Shown one piece after another: positions 1-7,737 of a stretch of 64,000 bases of DNA. Each line of letters opens with the position of its first letter. The first letter of the stretch is position 1. A program made the translations under genes and the position numbers. The notes beneath the pieces were generated by a model. That model was not told the origin of the DNA and searched no databases. It saw nothing but the letters and a program-made list of their open reading frames with translations. This DNA is from Gemmatimonadota bacterium (GTDB lineage: Bacteria; Gemmatimonadota; Gemmatimonadetes; Gemmatimonadales; Gemmatimonadaceae), in assembly GCA_031372565.1 (NCBI GenBank), contig JANMLN010000151.1:1-64000 (forward strand), read 5' to 3'.

Positions 1-366
1 CGGCCACTGGCCGCTCAAGCGCACCAAGTGGACGACCTCCGCTTCGATTGTCTCAAGATCCTGGTCGGACAGAGAAGGTTCCGCAGCGTACCACACCCAG
101 AGCGAGATCTCCTTCACGTGGTGGCGAAAGCGATAGCCGTAGTAGCCACCTCGGCCTGAGGCCTTCCAACCGAAACGCAGGCGGCTCCGAAGCGCTTGCT
201 TCGTGACGCCGACGTACACAACGCGGCCCGCTAATGCGAAGACGTACAGTTTGGGGCCTTTCGCTGAGGCACGTCCTCGGAACGGCGCTCTCCCGCCCGG
301 CGTAGTCACTTGGAAATCGCCTTCGGTGACCGCTAGCTCGAAGCGATCCGGTTCGGAGAGCAACAA
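1..366 (-). CDS. Integron cassette ORF, GIY-YIG-like nuclease domain protein (3' end outside window)
   Basis: Manual translation from TTG at 366: MLLSEPDRFELAVTEGDFQVTTPGGRAPFRGRASAKGPKLYVFALAGRVVYVGVTKQALRSRLRFGW...DLETIEAEVVHLVRLSGQWP. Open to base 1. KLYVF-x-VYVGVT-x-LRSRL...E resembles the GIY-YIG motif. Starts 11 nt after an attC core site. Confidence 0.7.
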   Translation of the reverse strand, partial: MLLSEPDRFELAVTEGDFQVTTPGGRAPFRGRASAKGPKLYVFALAGRVVYVGVTKQALRSRLRFGWKASGRGGYYGYRFRHHVKEISLWVWYAAEPSLSDQDLETIEAEVVHLVRLSGQWP

Positions 367-377
367 TGCTTGGGCCT

Positions 378-483
378 TCCTAACGTTCAAGGTTCAGCTG
401 CAGAGCCATTCAATAAAATGGCGCGGCGCGAAGCGCCGTGCCATCCTCCATAGCGGCTCTGTCAGTTGCAACCGGCGTTAGGA
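378..483 (-). mobile_element. attC recombination site 1
   Basis: Minus strand: TCCTAAC-GCCG-GTTGCAAC-TGAC...GCTGAAC-CTTGAAC-GTTAGGA. Long imperfect palindrome with two extrahelical bases. Confidence 0.9.
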
Positions 484-508
484 AACCGGGCGCCAGCTGC
501 TCGGGGAC

Positions 509-784
509 CTATAGCGGCCATTTGATGACGGCCTCGGCGAGAATCTCGTCGAAAGGTCGCGAACGCTTGCGGTGCTCGCTCGCGACGAAGAGCACCCTCT
601 CGGCGAACGCGTAGTTGTTGTCTTGGAGCTCCTTCGACACGCCGAAGTACTTTCTGGCCTGAGCGAACGAGACGCGACCTCCTCGTAGAAACGAATGATG
701 CAGGCGCGATAGCTGATCACGCGTCAATCGCTCGGACTCGAGATAGCTGAGAGATTCGCGTAGACGATCGGCCTTCGATGTCAA
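509..784 (-). CDS. Integron cassette ORF, hypothetical protein (91 aa)
   Basis: Fills the space between attC2 and attC1. TTG start 9 nt after the GTTAGGC core. Confidence 0.7.
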   Translation of the reverse strand: MTSKADRLRESLSYLESERLTRDQLSRLHHSFLRGGRVSFAQARKYFGVSKELQDNNYAFAERVLFVASEHRKRSRPFDEILAEAVIKWPL

Positions 785-793
785 TTCGTGGTT

Positions 794-908
794 GCCTAAC
801 GTTCAAGGTTGAGCTGCGGGACCATCGGACGAGTATGCCGCTGGCGTGTGCAGCGAGCAAGGTCGCGGTAGGGCGACTTGGCCCCGTCAGCTCCAACCAG
901 CGTTAGGC
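794..908 (-). mobile_element. attC recombination site 2
   Basis: Minus strand: GCCTAAC-GCTG-GTTGGAGC-TGAC...GCTCAAC-CTTGAAC-GTTAGGC. The hicB stop codon TAA lies inside the R'' box. Confidence 0.9.
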
Positions 909-1115
909 CGCGACCTCGACGGAGACGGCATAGCTCGAAGGCGCCGGCAGCGCGGCCCCATCCTCGCGCAGGCCCTCGAGATGAAAGGCGATCGCGTCGC
1001 GGATGCTCGCCTCGACGTCGTCCCGCGTTGCGCCGGTGGCAATGCAGCCGGGCACATCGGGCGAGTAGGCGGAGAAGCCGGTCTCGGTCTGTTCGACAAT
1101 CACGAGGAGCTTCAT
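903..1115 (-). CDS. hicB: HicB family antitoxin (short, no C-terminal DNA-binding domain)
   Basis: FSAYSPDVPGCIATGATRDDVEASIRDAIAFHLEG is a typical HicB motif. ATGA overlap with hicA. Confidence 0.9.
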   Translation of the reverse strand: MKLLVIVEQTETGFSAYSPDVPGCIATGATRDDVEASIRDAIAFHLEGLREDGAALPAPSSYAVSVEVAA

Positions 1116-1300
1116 GTCTTGAGTCCTGCCTGCTTGAGGATGCTATTCAGAGTGCCTGGCGCGACATCGTCATTCGGCTTGCCAGCGACCGTGACGAGGC
1201 CGGGCTTGGTCGGATGGCGATACTGCTCGTGGCTGCCGCGCGTCCGAGCGAGCATCCAGCCGTCATCGCGCAGGAGCCGGAGCAGATCGCGGATCTTCAC
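1112..1300 (-). CDS. hicA: HicA family mRNA interferase toxin
   Basis: DGW...RGSHEQYRHPTKPGLVTV...GTLNSILKQAGL, with the catalytic GSH motif. Confidence 0.92.
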   Translation of the reverse strand: MKIRDLLRLLRDDGWMLARTRGSHEQYRHPTKPGLVTVAGKPNDDVAPGTLNSILKQAGLKT

Positions 1301-1306
1301 CTACGG

Positions 1307-1335
1307 AGTTTGACGAGTCCGCGTGAGGAAGGCAA
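1307..1335 (-). promoter_or_regulatory. Putative sigma70 promoter of the hicAB cassette (probably leaderless)
   Basis: Minus strand TTGCCT-N17-CAAACT, then 6 nt to the hicA GTG. No clear Shine-Dalgarno. Confidence 0.55.
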
Positions 1336-1350
1336 GCGCTTCACGGGGCT

Positions 1351-1457
1351 GCCTAACGTACAAGGTTCAGCTGCGGAGCCATATCAACAAAATGGCGCGG
1401 CGCGAAGCGCCGTGCCATCCTCCGCAGCGGCTCCGTCAGTTGCAACCGGCGTTAGGG
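1351..1457 (-). mobile_element. attC recombination site 3
   Basis: Minus strand: CCCTAAC-GCCG-GTTGCAAC-TGAC...GCTGAAC-CTTGTAC-GTTAGGC. Near-identical to attC1, with a compensatory stem change. Confidence 0.9.
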
Positions 1458-1474
1458 CGCGGACCGGGAAGTGG

Positions 1475-1903
1475 CTATTCGTCGTGCTCACTCAGGTGCG
1501 CGCGGATCAAGGGGTCGTCGTCCGCGATATGGTCGATGATGTGGAAGACATCTTCCAGCCGTGGGTGGGCGAGTGCGGCATCGCGGGAAAGCACTTCGCC
1601 CATGATCTCGACGTGCTGCCAGGGAGACTCGCTCCGTTCAAGCACTCGTGCGGCCCTACCCTCTGGATTGACCGATAGCTCGAGCGCGACAGCCACGCGA
1701 CTACTGGGTGGGGCGTCGTCCGCCCAGTCGCCCACGCTGACGAGTGTGCTCACTGCTGGCGGCCGGTGGCCCTCGGTGAAGCGGACGTAGTATATGGCAT
1801 AGGCACTCCCGTCCTCGGACACGTATCCAGTCCGCGTGAGGACCTGCGCACCGCAACACGAACACGGCCGCGATCGCGGCTCCGCGAGTTCGAGAGTGAT
1901 CAT
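1475..1903 (-). CDS. Integron cassette ORF, hypothetical protein with N-terminal CSCCG motif (142 aa)
   Basis: First cassette of the array. ATG 13 nt after the GTTAGGG core; ends just before attC3. Confidence 0.8.
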   Translation of the reverse strand: MITLELAEPRSRPCSCCGAQVLTRTGYVSEDGSAYAIYYVRFTEGHRPPAVSTLVSVGDWADDAPPSSRVAVALELSVNPEGRAARVLERSESPWQHVEIMGEVLSRDAALAHPRLEDVFHIIDHIADDDPLIRAHLSEHDE

Positions 1904-1916
1904 CTGGCTCGGGTCG

Positions 1917-1991
1917 CCCTAACGTGTATTCAACAGCAACTCCCCACCTAGTTCCCGAACGCGCCTTTCGATCAGCTTCCTAATCCCTAAC
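1917..1991 (-). mobile_element. attI-like site with upstream core-like direct repeats
   Basis: Minus strand ...GTTGCTGTTGAATACAC-GTTAGGG. The core has no attC palindrome partner. Extra GTTAGGG/ATTAGGA/ACTAGGT motifs at 1985-1991, 1978-1984 and 1946-1952. Confidence 0.6.
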
Positions 1992-2273
1992 CTTTCCTCT
2001 ACGCGACCGCCCGGCAAGTACCCGCCACACTCCGGCTTGTAACACGCGCCGAGCACCACCTAACTCCGCCGCTCGGCCGCGAACGCGCTGCCTAGTTCGG
2101 CCACCGCGACGCCCTGTGCCGCCACTGAGCCTGGCCCAGCTGCACATCCCAAACGTGAGCCGCCCCCCGGACAGCCGCCCCCCCCACCCCGCTGGACGCC
2201 TCCCCCCCCAACCCGTAGCGTTGCCACCACCCGAACCACCGCTCCGCCGCTCGCCACACCCTCGGCCGCCTCA

Positions 2274-3386
2274 ATGCGCATCACCCGCATCCTCGCCTAC
2301 CGCGCGCTCCTCCCACTCCACGAAACCACCTACAAGTGGTCGGGCGGAAAGTCGGTCACCACCTTCGACTCCACCGTCGTTCGCGTCGAAACCGACACGG
2401 GCCTCGTCGGCCACGGCGAAGTCTGCCCACTCGGGCCCTTCTACCTGCCCGCGTACGCCGATGGCGTGCGCGCAGGCATCCGCGAACTCGGGCCACACCT
2501 CATCGGCGCCGATCCACGCGAGCTCGCCAAGCTCAATCGCCTCATGGACGCCGCGCTCAAGGGGCACCCGTACGTCAAGAGCGGTATCGACATCGCCTGC
2601 TGGGATATCCTCGGCCAGGTCGCCAACATGCCCGTCTGCGAACTGCTCGGCGGACGCTACGGCCACGACGTCCACCTCTATCGCGCCATCTCACAGGAGT
2701 CGCCCGAAGTCATGGCCGCGCGCGTCGCCGAGTATCGCGCGATGGGCTATCGCCGCTTTCAGCTCAAGGTAGGCGGTGATCCCGACGTCGATATCGAACG
2801 CATCCGCGCGGTCGCGGCACAACTGGAATCCGGCGATCGACTGATCGCCGATGCCAACACCGGGTGGGTCCAGCACGAAGCGGTGCGCGTCGCCAAGGCG
2901 GTGCGCGACATCGACGTCTACATCGAGCAGCCCTGTCTCACCTACGAAGAGTGCCTCGCGGTGCGCCGCCAGATTCCGCATCCCTTCGTGCTCGACGAGA
3001 ACATCGACGATCTGGGCATGCTGCTGCGCGGCAAGGCGGACCTCGCCATGGATGTCGTCAATCTCAAGATCAGCAAGCTCGGCGGACTCACCAAGACCAG
3101 GCAGGCACGCGACCTCTGCGTCTCGATGGGCATCGGCATGACGATCGAAGACTCGTGGGGCGGCGACATCGCCACGGCAGCCATCGCGCACATGGCCCAC
3201 AGCACGCCCACCGAATTCCTCTTCACCACCACGGACTTCAACAGCTACGGACCGGTGAGCATCGCCACCGGCGCGCCGCAGCGCGTGAACGGACGCATGG
3301 CGGCATCCACCGCGCCGGGGTTGGGCATTCAGCCGCGCATGGACGTGCTGGGCGCGCCGCTCGTCACCGTCGACAAGGGCGCCTAG
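2274..3386 (+). CDS. Enolase superfamily (mandelate racemase/MLE) enzyme, hydroxyproline(-betaine) epimerase/dehydratase-like
   Basis: FQLKVG, DAN, EQP, DE and NLKISKLGG motifs. Confidence 0.85.
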
Positions 3387-3398
3387 CGCCAACCACCG

Positions 3399-4685
3399 CT
3401 ACCGATCCGTCAGCGCCGCATACACCAACTTCTTGACCTCGCGCTCCAACGGCGTCACGCGAAACGGCGCGGTCTGTGTCATCACCAGTCCCACGATGTC
3501 GTTCTTCGGGTCGACCCAGAAGAAGGTGTTGTAGATCCCCGACCAGCCGAAGCTCCCCGCCGCACTCGAGACGAACGTGTTCGGCTGTGTGGTCTGCACG
3601 GTCACGCCAAGTCCGAAACCGTAGCCCGGCGCACCGTTGTACGGTGCGGGCACACTCTGCGGTGGCACCAGCCAGTCGCGCGTCATCTGCGCCACCGTCT
3701 CCGCCTTGAGAATGCGCGTGCCGTCCAGCGTGCCGCCGTTGAGCAGCATCTGGGCGAAGCGCAGGTAATCCTCCGCCGTCGACACGAGCCCGCCGCCGCC
3801 CATGAAGAAGCGCGCCGACTCGTCCTGGAATGATTGCGTGTCATCCGACAGCGTCACCCTCACTCGGCGGTCCGCGCCCACCGTATGCAGCGCTGCCACG
3901 CGGGCCTTTTGCGCTGCTTCGATGTGAAAGCCCGAGTTGCGCATGCCGAGCGGCTTGAAGATGCGCTCGCGCAACACGACATCGAATGACTGGCCCGCTG
4001 CCACTTCGATCACGCGCCCGAGGACATCAAGCCCGGCCGAATAGCTCCACCGTTCGCCCGGCTGGAAGAGCAGGGGGAACCGCGCGACCGAGTCGGCGAA
4101 GAAGGCGATCGTCCTGGAAGGATCGTACACCTTGCCCGCCTTCCAGATGGAGTCGCTCCACGTGTTGAAGAGGATGTAGCCGAGCCCCGACGTGTGCGAC
4201 ATGAGCTGCGCGACCGTGATCGGGCTGGTCGCAGCCACGGTCTGCGGAGCGAGCGCACCACCGCCCGTGTACACACGAACATTCGCGAACGCCGGGATGT
4301 ACTTGGACACCGGATCATCAAGCCTGAGCTTCCCGGCATCAACCAGCTGCAACGCGGCCACGGTGGTGACGGGCTTGGACATGCTCGCGATGCGAAAGAC
4401 GGCGTCGGTCGTGAGAGGCGCCGCGCCATCCACGTTCATCTTTCCCACCGCCTGCGCGTGCACGAGCTTGCCGTGTCGCGCCACCACGGTCACGATCCCC
4501 GCGTAGCGACCAGAGTCGATGTTCGCCTGCATGGCCGGCAGAAGCTTCGCGAGCGCCTCCGACGAGAAGCCAGCCTGCTCCGGCGTGGCGCGCGGTAGCC
4601 ACTGGGCGGCGGCGCGCGCAGGGTCCGCCGCGAGCACCAGCAGCGCGGGCACGGCCACGCGCGTGAACGATTGCAGCGATCGCAT
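3399..4685 (-). CDS. Secreted serine hydrolase, beta-lactamase family
   Basis: Signal peptide, FRIASMSK (SxxK), LMSHTSG, PGERWSYS, FGWSG. Start set at MRSLQS. Confidence 0.88.
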   Translation of the reverse strand: MRSLQSFTRVAVPALLVLAADPARAAAQWLPRATPEQAGFSSEALAKLLPAMQANIDSGRYAGIVTVVARHGKLVHAQAVGKMNVDGAAPLTTDAVFRIASMSKPVTTVAALQLVDAGKLRLDDPVSKYIPAFANVRVYTGGGALAPQTVAATSPITVAQLMSHTSGLGYILFNTWSDSIWKAGKVYDPSRTIAFFADSVARFPLLFQPGERWSYSAGLDVLGRVIEVAAGQSFDVVLRERIFKPLGMRNSGFHIEAAQKARVAALHTVGADRRVRVTLSDDTQSFQDESARFFMGGGGLVSTAEDYLRFAQMLLNGGTLDGTRILKAETVAQMTRDWLVPPQSVPAPYNGAPGYGFGLGVTVQTTQPNTFVSSAAGSFGWSGIYNTFFWVDPKNDIVGLVMTQTAPFRVTPLEREVKKLVYAALTDR

Positions 4686-4773
4686 GCCGACCAACCGGGT
4701 GAGAGTGAGCGGATGATGAGGCCGCGCAACGTGCAGCGCCAGTGGTCCGCACAGCATCATGCGCCGCGGCATC

Positions 4774-7737
4774 CTACAGAAACGGCTGATACCTCGGCTT
4801 CCACAGCCGGTCATACGTGATGCCCACGCGCAGCTGCGCCGAGAAGCCCGGCTTGCTCGTCTGTGGCACCTTCCCCTGGAACAGGTACAGGTCAGCCGCC
4901 ACCGACAGCGACAACTCATCCACCAGCGGAATGAGCAGTTCGTGCACCATGTTCTCGCGCAGCCCCAGGTGGCTCGCGTTGTCGGCCGCCGAGGGAAACA
5001 GGTAGGTGATGTCGTTCCGCAGGCGGTACGTCACCCCGGTGATCGACGAGATGCCGGGGACCGCACCCAGCCGCCACTCGAACTGCGCCACCGACTGGAA
5101 GCCATACTGCAAGTTGGGCCGGCCGAAGTCGTTCTCGATCGCAAGTGCCAGCTCGGCGCGGCGAATCACGGGCCCGGGCATCAACAGGTAACCGCCGCTC
5201 GCCCGCACGGCCATCTTGCGGTTGTTGTCGCGCCCGCTCGTGATGTCGATCGTGGGGGTGAACTCGGTGTTCAGCAATCCGCGCACGAACAGGTGCGGTT
5301 CGCCTGCCGTCGCCACCCGCCGCGATGGCCTGAGCGTCACGTCCAACCGGATGTCGTTGGTCAACGTGCTCACATCCTCGCGACCCGCGCTGAAGATCCC
5401 CTGCCGCGAGTAAGCGAGCGAGAGTCCCACATCGGTCGCGGTGGTCGCGCGTTCATGCGTCATCAGGACGCGTCCGGTGAAGCCGGCCATCCACACATTG
5501 CGCGCCGTGACGCGTGCGTCCGGTACGGCGCCGTAGTCGCCTTGCGTGGTCACCTGATTGGCCGAGGCCCAGAGCGTGGGTCGGTCGAAGATGAAGCTCA
5601 GCAGGCTCACGTACGGTTGGTCCGGCGCAATCAGCGCGGCCACGGCATCGATCTGCTCGTCGCCCTTGGCGCGCGCACGAATGCGCTTGAGTTCGCCATA
5701 CACGAGATCACGGATCGCCAAGGGCTGTGCGCCGCGCATGGGTTCCAGCGTCCCATCCGCGTCCTGCACGAAGGTGCGACGCACGCGACGCCCGCGCGAC
5801 AGACTCTTGAACCGCGCCCCCTCGAAGAGCACGTCGCTCGTCGCCATGCGATAGTAGGTCTGGTCATCGATCTTGTGCCCTTGCACGGTGCCCGCAACCG
5901 CGTCGAAGCCGCTCGTGGCCAACTCGCCGCGCACATCCTCGCGCAGCGCGGCCCTCAGATCCGCGCCGGTGATGTCGAGCAGGACGATCTGATCTTCCGT
6001 CCAGAGCCACTCGTCGATCTCGTTCTCGTGCAGCTTGCCGATGAGCGGCGGAAACTGCTCGAGCCGGCGGATCACGGCGACCTCGGTCTGGCCGCGCAAC
6101 CGGACCAGCCGCGCCATGAACGCTTCCCACATCGCCTTCGACATGCGCCCCTGTCGCGTCACCGCATCAACCTCGCGCAACTCGGGATGGCGGTCGGCCA
6201 GGTTCACGAAGGCGGGGAACATGAGCTCACCACGCGGGCGGCGGTTGAGCGTCGCGCGACCCGTGATCTCCCGGACGAGCGCGGTATCGGCCGGGATCTG
6301 GTCGGTCACGGCCGCGATGCGATGCGACACCGCCGAGAGATGCAGTGCACCGCTGCGCGCGATCGTGCCTGGGTCCGTGCGTGCGGCGTCGGTGGCCGCG
6401 CGACTCCGAACGCTCCGCCGGAACTCGAGATCGAGCTGTCCCACACTCAGTCCGTTGGCCGCACTCCGCGCGATGAGCGCTGGCGGCCCCGGCCGCGCAA
6501 AGGGACGATCCGGCAACTCCACGCGCACCTGCGCCGCTTCCGGCGCCCAGCGCACCGGCATGTCGGCCACGATCGCATCGATCCCGGGGACCTCATCACC
6601 CAACGCGGCGTTGTCGAGCGGATCCATGTTCGACAGGGCGACAATCGCGTCGACCCCCGCCGCACGCAGCCGCGCCACTTCGCGTCGTGCCGCGATCGCC
6701 GGGGCCTCGAAGATGAAGTCGCCCAGGCGCGCGCGCGGCAAACCGTCGCGTGCACGCAGGTTGACGAGCCCGATGAGTCCCACGCGCATGCCGTTGGCCT
6801 CGATGATCCGGCTCGGCACGAACACCGACGAATCCTTCGTGCGCACGTTGGCCGCAAGGAGCACCACGCCCGGCGTCTCGCGGGTGATCTCGCCGAGCGC
6901 TGCGGCGCCGAGCGACAACTCGAATGCGTACGGCACGAGGGTGCCGTAGCCCAGCCGCGCGAGGGCAAGCTGGTTGAGCCGTGCGCGCTCGGCGCGTGAA
7001 AGCTCGATATCGCTCTCCTGATGACCGAGATCGACGGTGATCACCGCGCTTCCACGGGCACGCGCCGCCGCGGCCATCGACGTGACGAGCGTCGCGCGCG
7101 GCCCAAGCTCGCCGAGGTTGAGCGGGAGCTCGAAGAGTCGCGAGTCCAGCACGTCGATCCGGTTCATCTCGCCAGCGCCCCATGCGTCGGCGTCTGACGG
7201 CCAGACGGCGCCCGGCTGCTCGACGATGTAGACGCGATAGTCGTCCGGCGTTCGCAGCCGCGACACGCGCACACGTGTTGGCACGAGGTCCGGAAAGTCC
7301 GTGCTCCGCCGCGGATTCTGGTCGAGCATCGCGAGCAGGTCGGGCTGCGGACGCCACGGGTCCTGCAGCAGGAGCACATTGGCGCTCACGAGCGCGCGCA
7401 CGGTGTCGATCCGTTCGGCCTCGGCGCGTTGCGCGATGATCCACGGCAGCTCGTCGCCGCGCGGTTCCTCACCCGAGAAGAAGACCACGATGCCCGGCGT
7501 GCGCCACGCCAGGTGGCTGACCAGCTTGAAGGGCTGTCCTTCCGTCGCGGCCTGTTGCGTGAGGAGCTCGTGCTCTTCCTGGGCGCGCCGCGCACCGAGC
7601 GCGCCGAGGCTGCGTCCTGTGTAGACGATCGTCACGCGCACCGTGTCGCGGGGCAGCTGCGCCTCGGCGGCTCGTGGAGGCGAGAGCGAGGCGACTGCGA
7701 GAAGGATGGCGAGCGCGAACGACGACGGTCGTGCCAC
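4774..7737 (-). CDS. Secreted protein with a degenerate 5'-nucleotidase-like region and a probable C-terminal beta-barrel
   Basis: Signal peptide. LLAANV, RIIEANGMRVGLIGL, LRAAGVDAIVALS, VPGIDAIV and IVLLDITGADL resemble the 5'-nucleotidase scaffold. The C-terminal ~270 aa show alternating amphipathic strands. Confidence 0.65.
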   Translation of the reverse strand: MARPSSFALAILLAVASLSPPRAAEAQLPRDTVRVTIVYTGRSLGALGARRAQEEHELLTQQAATEGQPFKLVSHLAWRTPGIVVFFSGEEPRGDELPWIIAQRAEAERIDTVRALVSANVLLLQDPWRPQPDLLAMLDQNPRRSTDFPDLVPTRVRVSRLRTPDDYRVYIVEQPGAVWPSDADAWGAGEMNRIDVLDSRLFELPLNLGELGPRATLVTSMAAAARARGSAVITVDLGHQESDIELSRAERARLNQLALARLGYGTLVPYAFELSLGAAALGEITRETPGVVLLAANVRTKDSSVFVPSRIIEANGMRVGLIGLVNLRARDGLPRARLGDFIFEAPAIAARREVARLRAAGVDAIVALSNMDPLDNAALGDEVPGIDAIVADMPVRWAPEAAQVRVELPDRPFARPGPPALIARSAANGLSVGQLDLEFRRSVRSRAATDAARTDPGTIARSGALHLSAVSHRIAAVTDQIPADTALVREITGRATLNRRPRGELMFPAFVNLADRHPELREVDAVTRQGRMSKAMWEAFMARLVRLRGQTEVAVIRRLEQFPPLIGKLHENEIDEWLWTEDQIVLLDITGADLRAALREDVRGELATSGFDAVAGTVQGHKIDDQTYYRMATSDVLFEGARFKSLSRGRRVRRTFVQDADGTLEPMRGAQPLAIRDLVYGELKRIRARAKGDEQIDAVAALIAPDQPYVSLLSFIFDRPTLWASANQVTTQGDYGAVPDARVTARNVWMAGFTGRVLMTHERATTATDVGLSLAYSRQGIFSAGREDVSTLTNDIRLDVTLRPSRRVATAGEPHLFVRGLLNTEFTPTIDITSGRDNNRKMAVRASGGYLLMPGPVIRRAELALAIENDFGRPNLQYGFQSVAQFEWRLGAVPGISSITGVTYRLRNDITYLFPSAADNASHLGLRENMVHELLIPLVDELSLSVAADLYLFQGKVPQTSKPGFSAQLRVGITYDRLWKPRYQPFL

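Follow-up and report, generated by a model that had tools for sequence, protein, structure and literature searches.

Can a cassette array that has no integron integrase gene of its own keep a complete attI site, and could an integrase encoded elsewhere in the genome then serve it? The question is raised by the left end of contig C125 (GenBank JANMLN010000151.1) of a bacterium of the Gemmatimonadota (order Gemmatimonadales), of which the first 64,000 bases, beginning at C125 base 1, are referred to here as the window. The window genome (G000) is a metagenome-assembled genome (MAG) of 4.44 Mb in 201 contigs, with a completeness of 95.85% and an estimated contamination of 2.01%. An earlier note, made from the letters of the window and a list of its open reading frames (ORFs), had proposed that three attC sites alternate here with small co-oriented ORFs behind an attI-like head, with no integrase gene adjacent. 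From our analysis, positions 1-2101 of the window are probably the attI-proximal end of a cassette array that has its own attI and no intI in cis, and that would be serviced in trans by the IntI encoded on contig C195 of the same genome. With at least two clustered attC sites and no intI nearby, the locus is by definition a CALIN (a cluster of attC sites that has no integron integrase), in this case headed by an attI.

Three repeats of 104-113 bp were found within 1.1 kb, each with CCTAAC at its start and GTTAGG at its end, and an inverse core R'' of the RYYYAAC type and a core R' (GTTRRRY) could be identified in all three. They are located at 379-482 (attC site 1), 795-907 (attC site 2) and 1352-1456 (attC site 3), with the top strand on the minus strand in each case, and gave E-values of 2e-30, 4e-23 and 8.2e-32, respectively, with an nhmmer profile that was itself built from six of the genome's own attC sites. 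As a single strand, the + strand folds into a long imperfect hairpin at each site (-32.0, -29.6 and -31.9 kcal/mol; z -7.3, -3.9 and -5.3), with 0, 1 and 0 of 200 shuffles folding at least as well. Site 2 is longer and has a different central part, and sites 1 and 3 are 95% identical over the last 73 nt of site 3. In each fold, an internal loop follows the terminal R box and two one-base bulges are present on the 3' arm of the + strand, which in site 1 are T462 and C469, 6 nt apart. In PMC2727003, folded attC sites are described as imperfect hairpins with an unpaired central spacer and 2-3 extrahelical bases, which occupy the R''-L'' arm, and it is the bottom strand that serves as the recombination substrate. 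The bulged arm is therefore R''-L'' and the + strand is the bottom strand, so that the cassettes are read leftwards on the minus strand, as the earlier note had assumed. The window attC sites are thus shown to be canonical in their single-strand architecture, the recombinogenic bottom strand being the + strand of the window; the bottom-strand folding on which the original proposal depended was seen at all three. The central stem-loops of sites 1 and 3 (394-437 and 1394-1411, minus strand) consist of a GC-rich 5-bp stem, an 8-nt loop and the motif ATTTTRTTGA, and resemble intrinsic terminators on the coding strand. Positions 1-2400 hold three such terminator-like sites, compared with a shuffle mean of 1.6, and the attC stem-loops could stop transcription between cassettes.

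Minus-strand ORFs alternate with these sites, and the hairpin folds, the nhmmer matches and the ORFs are in agreement on the proposed alternation. The first, attI-proximal cassette carries an ORF of 142 aa at 1475-1903. It is followed by a cassette with a hicA and hicB toxin-antitoxin pair at 903-1300 (hicA 1112-1300, HicA_toxin E 3.1e-22; hicB 903-1115, HicB_lk_antitox E 1e-10), an ORF of 91 aa at 509-784, and an ORF at 1-390 of which 130 aa are visible, since it is open at the contig start and has its 3' end and attC site on contig C73. Apart from hicAB, none of the cassette ORFs matched a Pfam or NCBIfam family at E 0.01 or better. For a likeness of the ORF at 1-390 to GIY-YIG nucleases, no support was found. 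The earlier note had also stated that each cassette start matches its own inverse core beyond 7 bp, as expected for cassettes that once were circular. This signature was found in three of the four cassettes. In the first, the complementarity of R'' and R' covers nine of nine bases (GTTAGGGCG at 1923->1915 and at 1450-1458); in another it covers 10 of 11 (GTTAGGCAACC and GTTAGGAAACC); and in the cassette running off the edge, whose attC site is on C73, nine of the 10 bases shown match (GTTAGGAAGG and GTTAGGAAGC). The claim failed for the hicAB cassette, in which the match is limited to the 7-bp core. An extension of R''/R' complementarity past the core is described as usual in PMC2727003. A 161-bp copy of the 5' part of hicA with its upstream bases (window 1185-1345) was observed with 92% identity at G000:C4:52553-52713, directly after the start of what by eye appears to be a protein kinase gene, which suggests that a cassette fragment may have come to lie at a non-integron site.

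The array was predicted to continue off the left edge of the window, and this was borne out by contig C73, which joins the start of C125 via 141 identical bases and contributes three further attC sites, giving an array of at least six. In the whole genome, 14 profile sites were detected at E < 1e-5, three each on C125, C73 and C119, two each on C6 and C22, and one on C123; at this threshold no site was found on C195, the contig carrying intI. The window sites share 83-90% identity with attC sites downstream of intI in G003:C152 and 90% with the one in G004:C312, and by alignment they are shown to belong to the same sequence family as the sites beside intI in sister species. A separate structural attC scan was unspecific, reporting all three window sites, two more in 44 kb of the rest of the window and 150 in the 4.44-Mb genome, and was used only for sites close downstream of intI stubs. 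The far end of C73 is the terminus of a multi-copy repeat with at least three different flanks in the assembly, and the first 141 bases of C73 were found again before two other flanks, C57 and C59. At the start of contig C119 (1-141) lies the C-terminal end of a transposase of the ISL3 family (Pfam E 1.1e-9), which C106 also has. Small array contigs begin with the ends of multi-copy elements, so the arrays are interrupted by insertion sequences, which also break the assembly. For the repeat with which C73 starts, an IS5-type transposase is an unsupported guess; no Pfam family matched its 41-aa terminal ORF. The cassettes of C119 (277-2415) encode a protein with a glyoxalase/bleomycin-resistance fold, a DUF4287 protein, and a ParE toxin with an 'addiction module' antitoxin, a content that is typical for a sedentary chromosomal integron.

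At the right end of the array, the crossover core GTTAGGG (1917-1923, minus strand) forms the junction between attI and the first cassette, which begins at G1923 on the minus strand. The earlier note considered this core attI-like because it has no palindromic partner, and we found no hairpin on either strand of the head region 1880-1990 (z +0.40 and +0.89). The attI region extends from 1924 to about 2101 on the minus strand and comprises an invariant core before the crossover, direct repeats of the YTAGG type (near -25, -60, -135 and -175) and, near -95, an ACTTGC block; both the repeats and the block are shared with C195. It is homologous to the intI-adjacent attI sites of C195, G002, G003 and G004. 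An 18-nt core with its GTTAG is identical between C125 (window 1919-1936, minus strand) and C195, where this word lies ~170 bp past the intI stop and is followed by a GTTAG-type core and the start of a small ORF, the contig ending 135 bp further on. Upstream of the crossover, the two heads align over ~175 bp. When the attI core was searched for with at most two mismatches, it was found in five of 41 genomes, all within the genus, and the reversed control gave no match; in G002, G003 and G004 it is situated directly 3' of intI on the same strand, within ~300 bp. The conservation among six attI sites ends at the G|TTAG crossover, and in comparison with the other sites that of the window ends at GTTAG as well, as would be expected because the right half of the site is replaced by each incoming cassette. 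On the basis of the homology to intI-adjacent sites and of this end of conservation, we accept the window head as a putative attI; together, the homology and the absence of a hairpin are what a double-stranded, non-palindromic attI ending at G|TT would be predicted to display.

A sequence-only covariance model was built from the six sites, on which the window scores 82 bits (E 1.1e-22) and C195 84 bits, both being training sequences, so that these scores are partly circular. In 60 other genomes of the family the model gave just two weak matches (E 0.0015 and 0.0053), and one weak match was found in the window genome itself, on C188 (E 0.0086). Nothing was detected in 49 of 50 integrase loci of other taxa, and the single match is a same-genus attI. 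In a metagenome collection, a 23-nt word specific for the window attI had no match, and the seven matches of the 18-nt core were dismissed as chance, all being in DNA of 36-52% GC without intI or attC. Over ~180 bases before the crossover, all 15 pairs of the six sites share 39-55% identity. The window attI shares 48-54% identity with the intI-linked sites, which among themselves share 43-52%, and its 54% identity to the C195 site over ~184 aligned bases argues that it is not a recent copy of that site. Of the 38 columns that do not vary among the four intI-linked sites, 33 are preserved in it; of the columns invariant in any three of these it keeps 72-85%, compared with 75-81% for the true attI left out. 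The orphan attI thus apparently shows no sign of decay.

No integron integrase was detected by the TIGR02249 model in the window or in the rest of C125, and tblastn with four IntI proteins of the genus at permissive settings gave nothing better than E 0.024 at the expected place. From the crossover to the start of the neighbouring enolase-superfamily gene there are ~350 bp, and the intI that adjoins attI in a complete integron is not among them. The earlier note had pointed out that an intI just left of the window would turn the locus into a complete integron; C73, the leftward continuation of the array, ends in the repeat terminus described above and carries none. The absence of an adjacent integrase gene is thereby confirmed. 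The genome's only intI above the cut-off is found at C195:34068-35006 on the + strand (407.7 bits; TIGR02249 cut-off 265). Residues 11-321 of the 360-aa C195 IntI align with residues 8-318 of VchIntIA (PDB 2A3V) with E 8e-78, including the IntI-specific insertion, which the earlier note had proposed as a search criterion, and the R, K, HxxR, H and Y catalytic motifs. As judged from this alignment, the C195 integrase is intact. Within the order, intI above cut-off was detected in 40 of the 61 genomes searched, including G000 and the unpublished G012. The proposal that the array has lost its intI or is serviced in trans is thus supported, and we infer from the sequences that the C195 integrase may act on the window array in trans.

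The layout of the genus differs from that assumed in the earlier note, where an enolase-family gene was thought to occupy the place of a divergent intI. In this genus, intI is co-oriented with the cassettes and upstream of attI: attI lies 3' of intI in G000, G002, G003 and G004, attC sites of the window's family follow attI on the same strand in G003 and G004, and attC sites are present downstream of intI on the same strand in G005. What is missing would accordingly be an intI on the minus strand with its end near 2092 rather than a divergent gene on the + strand. A weak candidate for its 3' stub, of ~31 codons, was found at 2092-2184 (minus strand). The frame stops at 2092-2094 in the -175 motif, as does intI in C195, G002 and G003, and in its last 31 codons it can be aligned, in a single register, to the part of IntI that comes after the catalytic tyrosine. 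The Smith-Waterman scores are 35-50, with z-values of 1.2, 2.6 and 6.2 against residue shuffles, and a DNA alignment disagrees with the stub reading, since there this stretch is paired with another portion of the G002 tail. An intI stub next to the window head is thus a possibility. Homology to G003 starts at ~2191, and together with the stub frame this makes a deletion junction near 2185-2190, leaving an intI stub, possible as well. Elsewhere in the relatives, three genomes from different genera (G037:C83:22307-22687, G048:C316:2479-2859 and G050:C278:17791-18171) have an intI match that runs precisely from model position 189 to 315, the open frames being 128-176 aa long, and in each of them an attC-like hairpin follows on the same strand at a distance of 0.6-1 kb downstream. 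The identical truncation points suggest a conserved short form or a common alignment boundary and not random decay.

The region upstream of the enolase-superfamily gene (2191-2273, + strand) is conserved with G003 and marks the right-hand limit of the integron-derived segment. The gene itself (2274-3386, + strand) belongs to the mandelate racemase/muconate lactonizing enzyme family (Pfam E 1.1e-43 and 1.1e-18) and is chromosomal flank outside the integron. It adjoins a minus-strand gene (3399-4919) for a 506-aa protein with a serine beta-lactamase fold (PF00144), and in G003 ~1.2 kb of extra DNA lie between these two genes. Three stretches of 6-8 C (read as G on the minus strand) were observed at 2157-2215, between the attI region and the conserved upstream segment, and the attI regions of both C195 and G001 likewise have G-runs. 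The closest genome found is G003, with 87% DNA identity in the enolase-family gene and 81% in the next gene. Nothing homologous to window 1-2190 is present at its enolase locus, and its intI locus is syntenic with C195, with 78-84% DNA identity upstream of intI. In a DNA search of 41 genomes with window 1-2270, the only matches were to the attC family within the genus and to hicAB homologues (65-72% identity); among 40 relatives, the other three cassettes and the head had no DNA match. With no array at the G003 locus and no match to these cassettes, the array is therefore genome-specific and its content not fixed, in contrast to the constant gene content that the earlier note had named as the observation that would speak against it.

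The junction between the attI region and the flank was bridged without differences by contigs assembled independently from four public runs of one study, covering 1427-2339 (X1; 913 bp, 0 differences), 1427-2180 (X2), 1857-2090 (X3) and 1807-2014 (X4). The depth of the X1 bridging contig is 9, compared with 8.7-10.7 for the chromosomal flank. These contigs exclude a chimeric join; they are not independent biology, the single study that supplied all four runs possibly including the source sample of the genome.

Other attI copies in the genus likewise have no integrase beside them. G001:C290:5158-5308 has the same attI architecture (77 bits) and is separated by ~60 bp from a preceding gene; in G000, the orthologue of that gene (on C40) has another gene directly behind it. 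C290 ends 160 bp after the copy. No intI was found within 5.1 kb upstream of this copy, nor anywhere in G001, which is 79% complete. In G002, three more attI-like copies outside the training set were identified away from intI (E 5.7e-10, 8.6e-7 and 9.5e-7) on two short contigs, C760 and C659, two of them being in tandem, ~1.2 kb apart, on the 3-kb C760. Directly after both C760 copies a toxin-antitoxin gene starts (an RHH antitoxin, then a BrnT-like toxin, as read by eye). In one C760 cassette, the cores of an attC-like hairpin are CTGAC/GTCAG and not CTAAC/GTTAG, in agreement with the GTCAG found at the attI-like head of this cassette. It would be unusual for the core triplet not to be GTT. 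A second attC cluster in G003 (C171) has no match to the attI model, and therefore not every CALIN of the genus has an attI head. Taken together, these copies show that an intI-less array keeping a complete attI appears to have arisen more than once in the genus. The window, G001:C290 and the three G002 copies, each at a different locus and absent from the sister loci that were checked, may also be examples of a distributed integron, in which one IntI serves several attI-headed arrays and attI modules persist or are copied without intI, a tentative idea that we regard as possible though not favoured.

In the reading we prefer, the C195 IntI would bind the folded + strand of the attC sites in trans, cassettes would be excised as circles through attC x attC recombination, and excised cassettes could be re-inserted at G|TT of either attI, including that at 1923. 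The locus would most likely have originated as a second integron platform, from which a deletion or rearrangement with its end near 2185-2190 took away intI but neither attI nor the array. Several points weigh against it. No recombination was seen, and all four runs have the same first cassette at 1923, with no credible alternative joint. An attC-to-attC-like joint (494->1353) has a side of 27 letters in a single contig and is unreliable; this joint and loose ends at 1456, considered as cassette turnover when 1-4200 was surveyed, can be explained by other near-identical copies of attC. The genome's two attI sites are only 54% identical over ~184 aligned bases, so that it is not guaranteed that the C195 IntI recognises the orphan one; in PMC2095811, recognition of an attI is said to be limited to its cognate integrase. 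C195 and C125 are likely to belong to one cell; they are separate contigs of a 201-contig MAG with an estimated contamination of 2%. Finally, no sigma-70-like promoter upstream of the first cassette was found in 1-2400, in a scan that does not cover the promoter types of this phylum, and expression from the window attI head is unsupported. The absence of a promoter-like site and the marked difference between the two attI sites keep alive a second explanation, which we consider unlikely: that a second integron lost its intI by deletion and that its attI and cassettes are no longer recombined, looking intact because the loss is recent. Such a frozen relic would fit with the possible stub (2184->2092) directly beside the start of the homology to the G003 enolase-upstream region, with the uniform cassette junctions of the four runs, and with the many 5'-truncated intI matches in relatives, an attC-like site lying within ~1 kb downstream in three of the eight examined. 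However, the orphan attI is about as distant from the intI-linked sites as these are from each other and yet has kept the conserved columns, which long neutral decay would not predict. The evidence for the stub is weak as well (z 1.2-6.2 depending on the partner, no TIGR02249 match), and an intact IntI with attC sites of the same family is present in the same genome.

Two further explanations question the head or the assembly. The head might be a shared non-coding module, such as a promoter/operator or a repeat, and not a functional attI, the array then starting at a secondary insertion site. The three G002 copies away from intI, two in tandem and with a toxin-antitoxin gene after them, do look like a dispersed repeat, and IntI-mediated cassette insertion outside att sites is documented in 10.1101/2022.09.11.507474. 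This is nevertheless very improbable, as four genomes have the module precisely in the interval from the intI stop to the first cassette, with conservation ending at G|TTAG, and apart from the two weak matches nothing was found with the attI model in the 60 other genomes of the family; moreover, the first window cassette starts with nine bases complementary to its own R'', as after an attI x attC insertion. Hardly credible, in our view, is that the intI and array contigs come from different strains or species, or that the join of attI and enolase gene is chimeric. The bin is indeed split into 201 contigs with 2.0% estimated contamination, its arrays are fragmented at the ends of multi-copy repeats, and all supporting runs are from one study, but contig sets from all four runs span the junction, free of differences and with a depth like that of the flank. 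In addition, the two attI regions share just the 18-nt exact word, which is far below the 141-bp overlaps by which contigs are joined in this assembly, and both contigs have same-genus homologues in G003 (87% for the C125 enolase-family gene, 78-84% for the region upstream of intI on C195). An array with its own attI, probably served from C195, thus remains the reading we favour.

As a kind of locus, the CALIN is known. The category was published in 2016 (PMC4889954), where origins by intI loss or rearrangement, and a mobilisation of the cassettes by an integrase encoded elsewhere, are proposed. In Xanthomonas, CALINs are reported to be mobilisable in trans and to lie away from intI in about half of the genomes (10.1101/2025.06.18.660453). 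Different from the published CALINs, the window array retains a recognisable and apparently undecayed attI, and could therefore also receive cassettes and not just donate them. PMC4889954 further states that attI is unknown for most integrons and was searched for only for classes 1-3, and attI-bearing CALINs would thus have gone unnoticed. In the portions of the literature covered by our search, no description of a CALIN with its own attI was found, which does not establish that none exists, and we regard the retained full attI as the less usual and modestly new part. Integrons have already been listed for Gemmatimonadota (PMC8618304). The chromosomal integrons of Treponema are described as having an atypical layout, with intI pointing towards attI and the cassettes (PMC3607928). 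By layout alone, the same co-oriented arrangement is seen in the present genus (G000, G002-G005), which belongs to a different phylum, and the window locus has no intI. The window array resembles the Vibrio cholerae superintegron in its homogeneous attC sites (attC1/attC3), its toxin-antitoxin cassettes (hicAB, and ParE on C119) and the predominance of cassettes without a known family, and the C195 integrase aligns over its full length with VchIntIA; it differs in that the orientation of intI is opposite and that the arrays are broken by insertion sequences across several small contigs. Delta-attI-type cassettes of mobile integrons contain additional attI copies or remnants, at places other than the intI-adjacent attI, that are reported to be recombination-competent with IntI1 (PMC12901181). 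Those remnants are located inside clinical class 1/2 arrays, whereas the window has an attI region of full length at the head of a separate chromosomal array.

As attI is recognisable only in a few clinical integron classes, CALINs are usually regarded as cassette stores without a head. Comparison within one genus allowed attI to be defined here, and indicates that an intI-less array can keep a complete attI without a sign of decay. The locus also offers a pair of attI sites, 54% identical, with which the strictness of attI recognition by an IntI can be probed. In the case of an inert site, the array is an ordinary CALIN derived by intI loss, in a phylum where integrons are common. If the sites are active, one integrase could feed several arrays, and the capacity for capturing cassettes would be larger than the count of complete integrons suggests. 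Should the integron indeed be distributed over several attI-headed arrays, the orphan attI would be a working second docking site that receives cassettes, and not a leftover.

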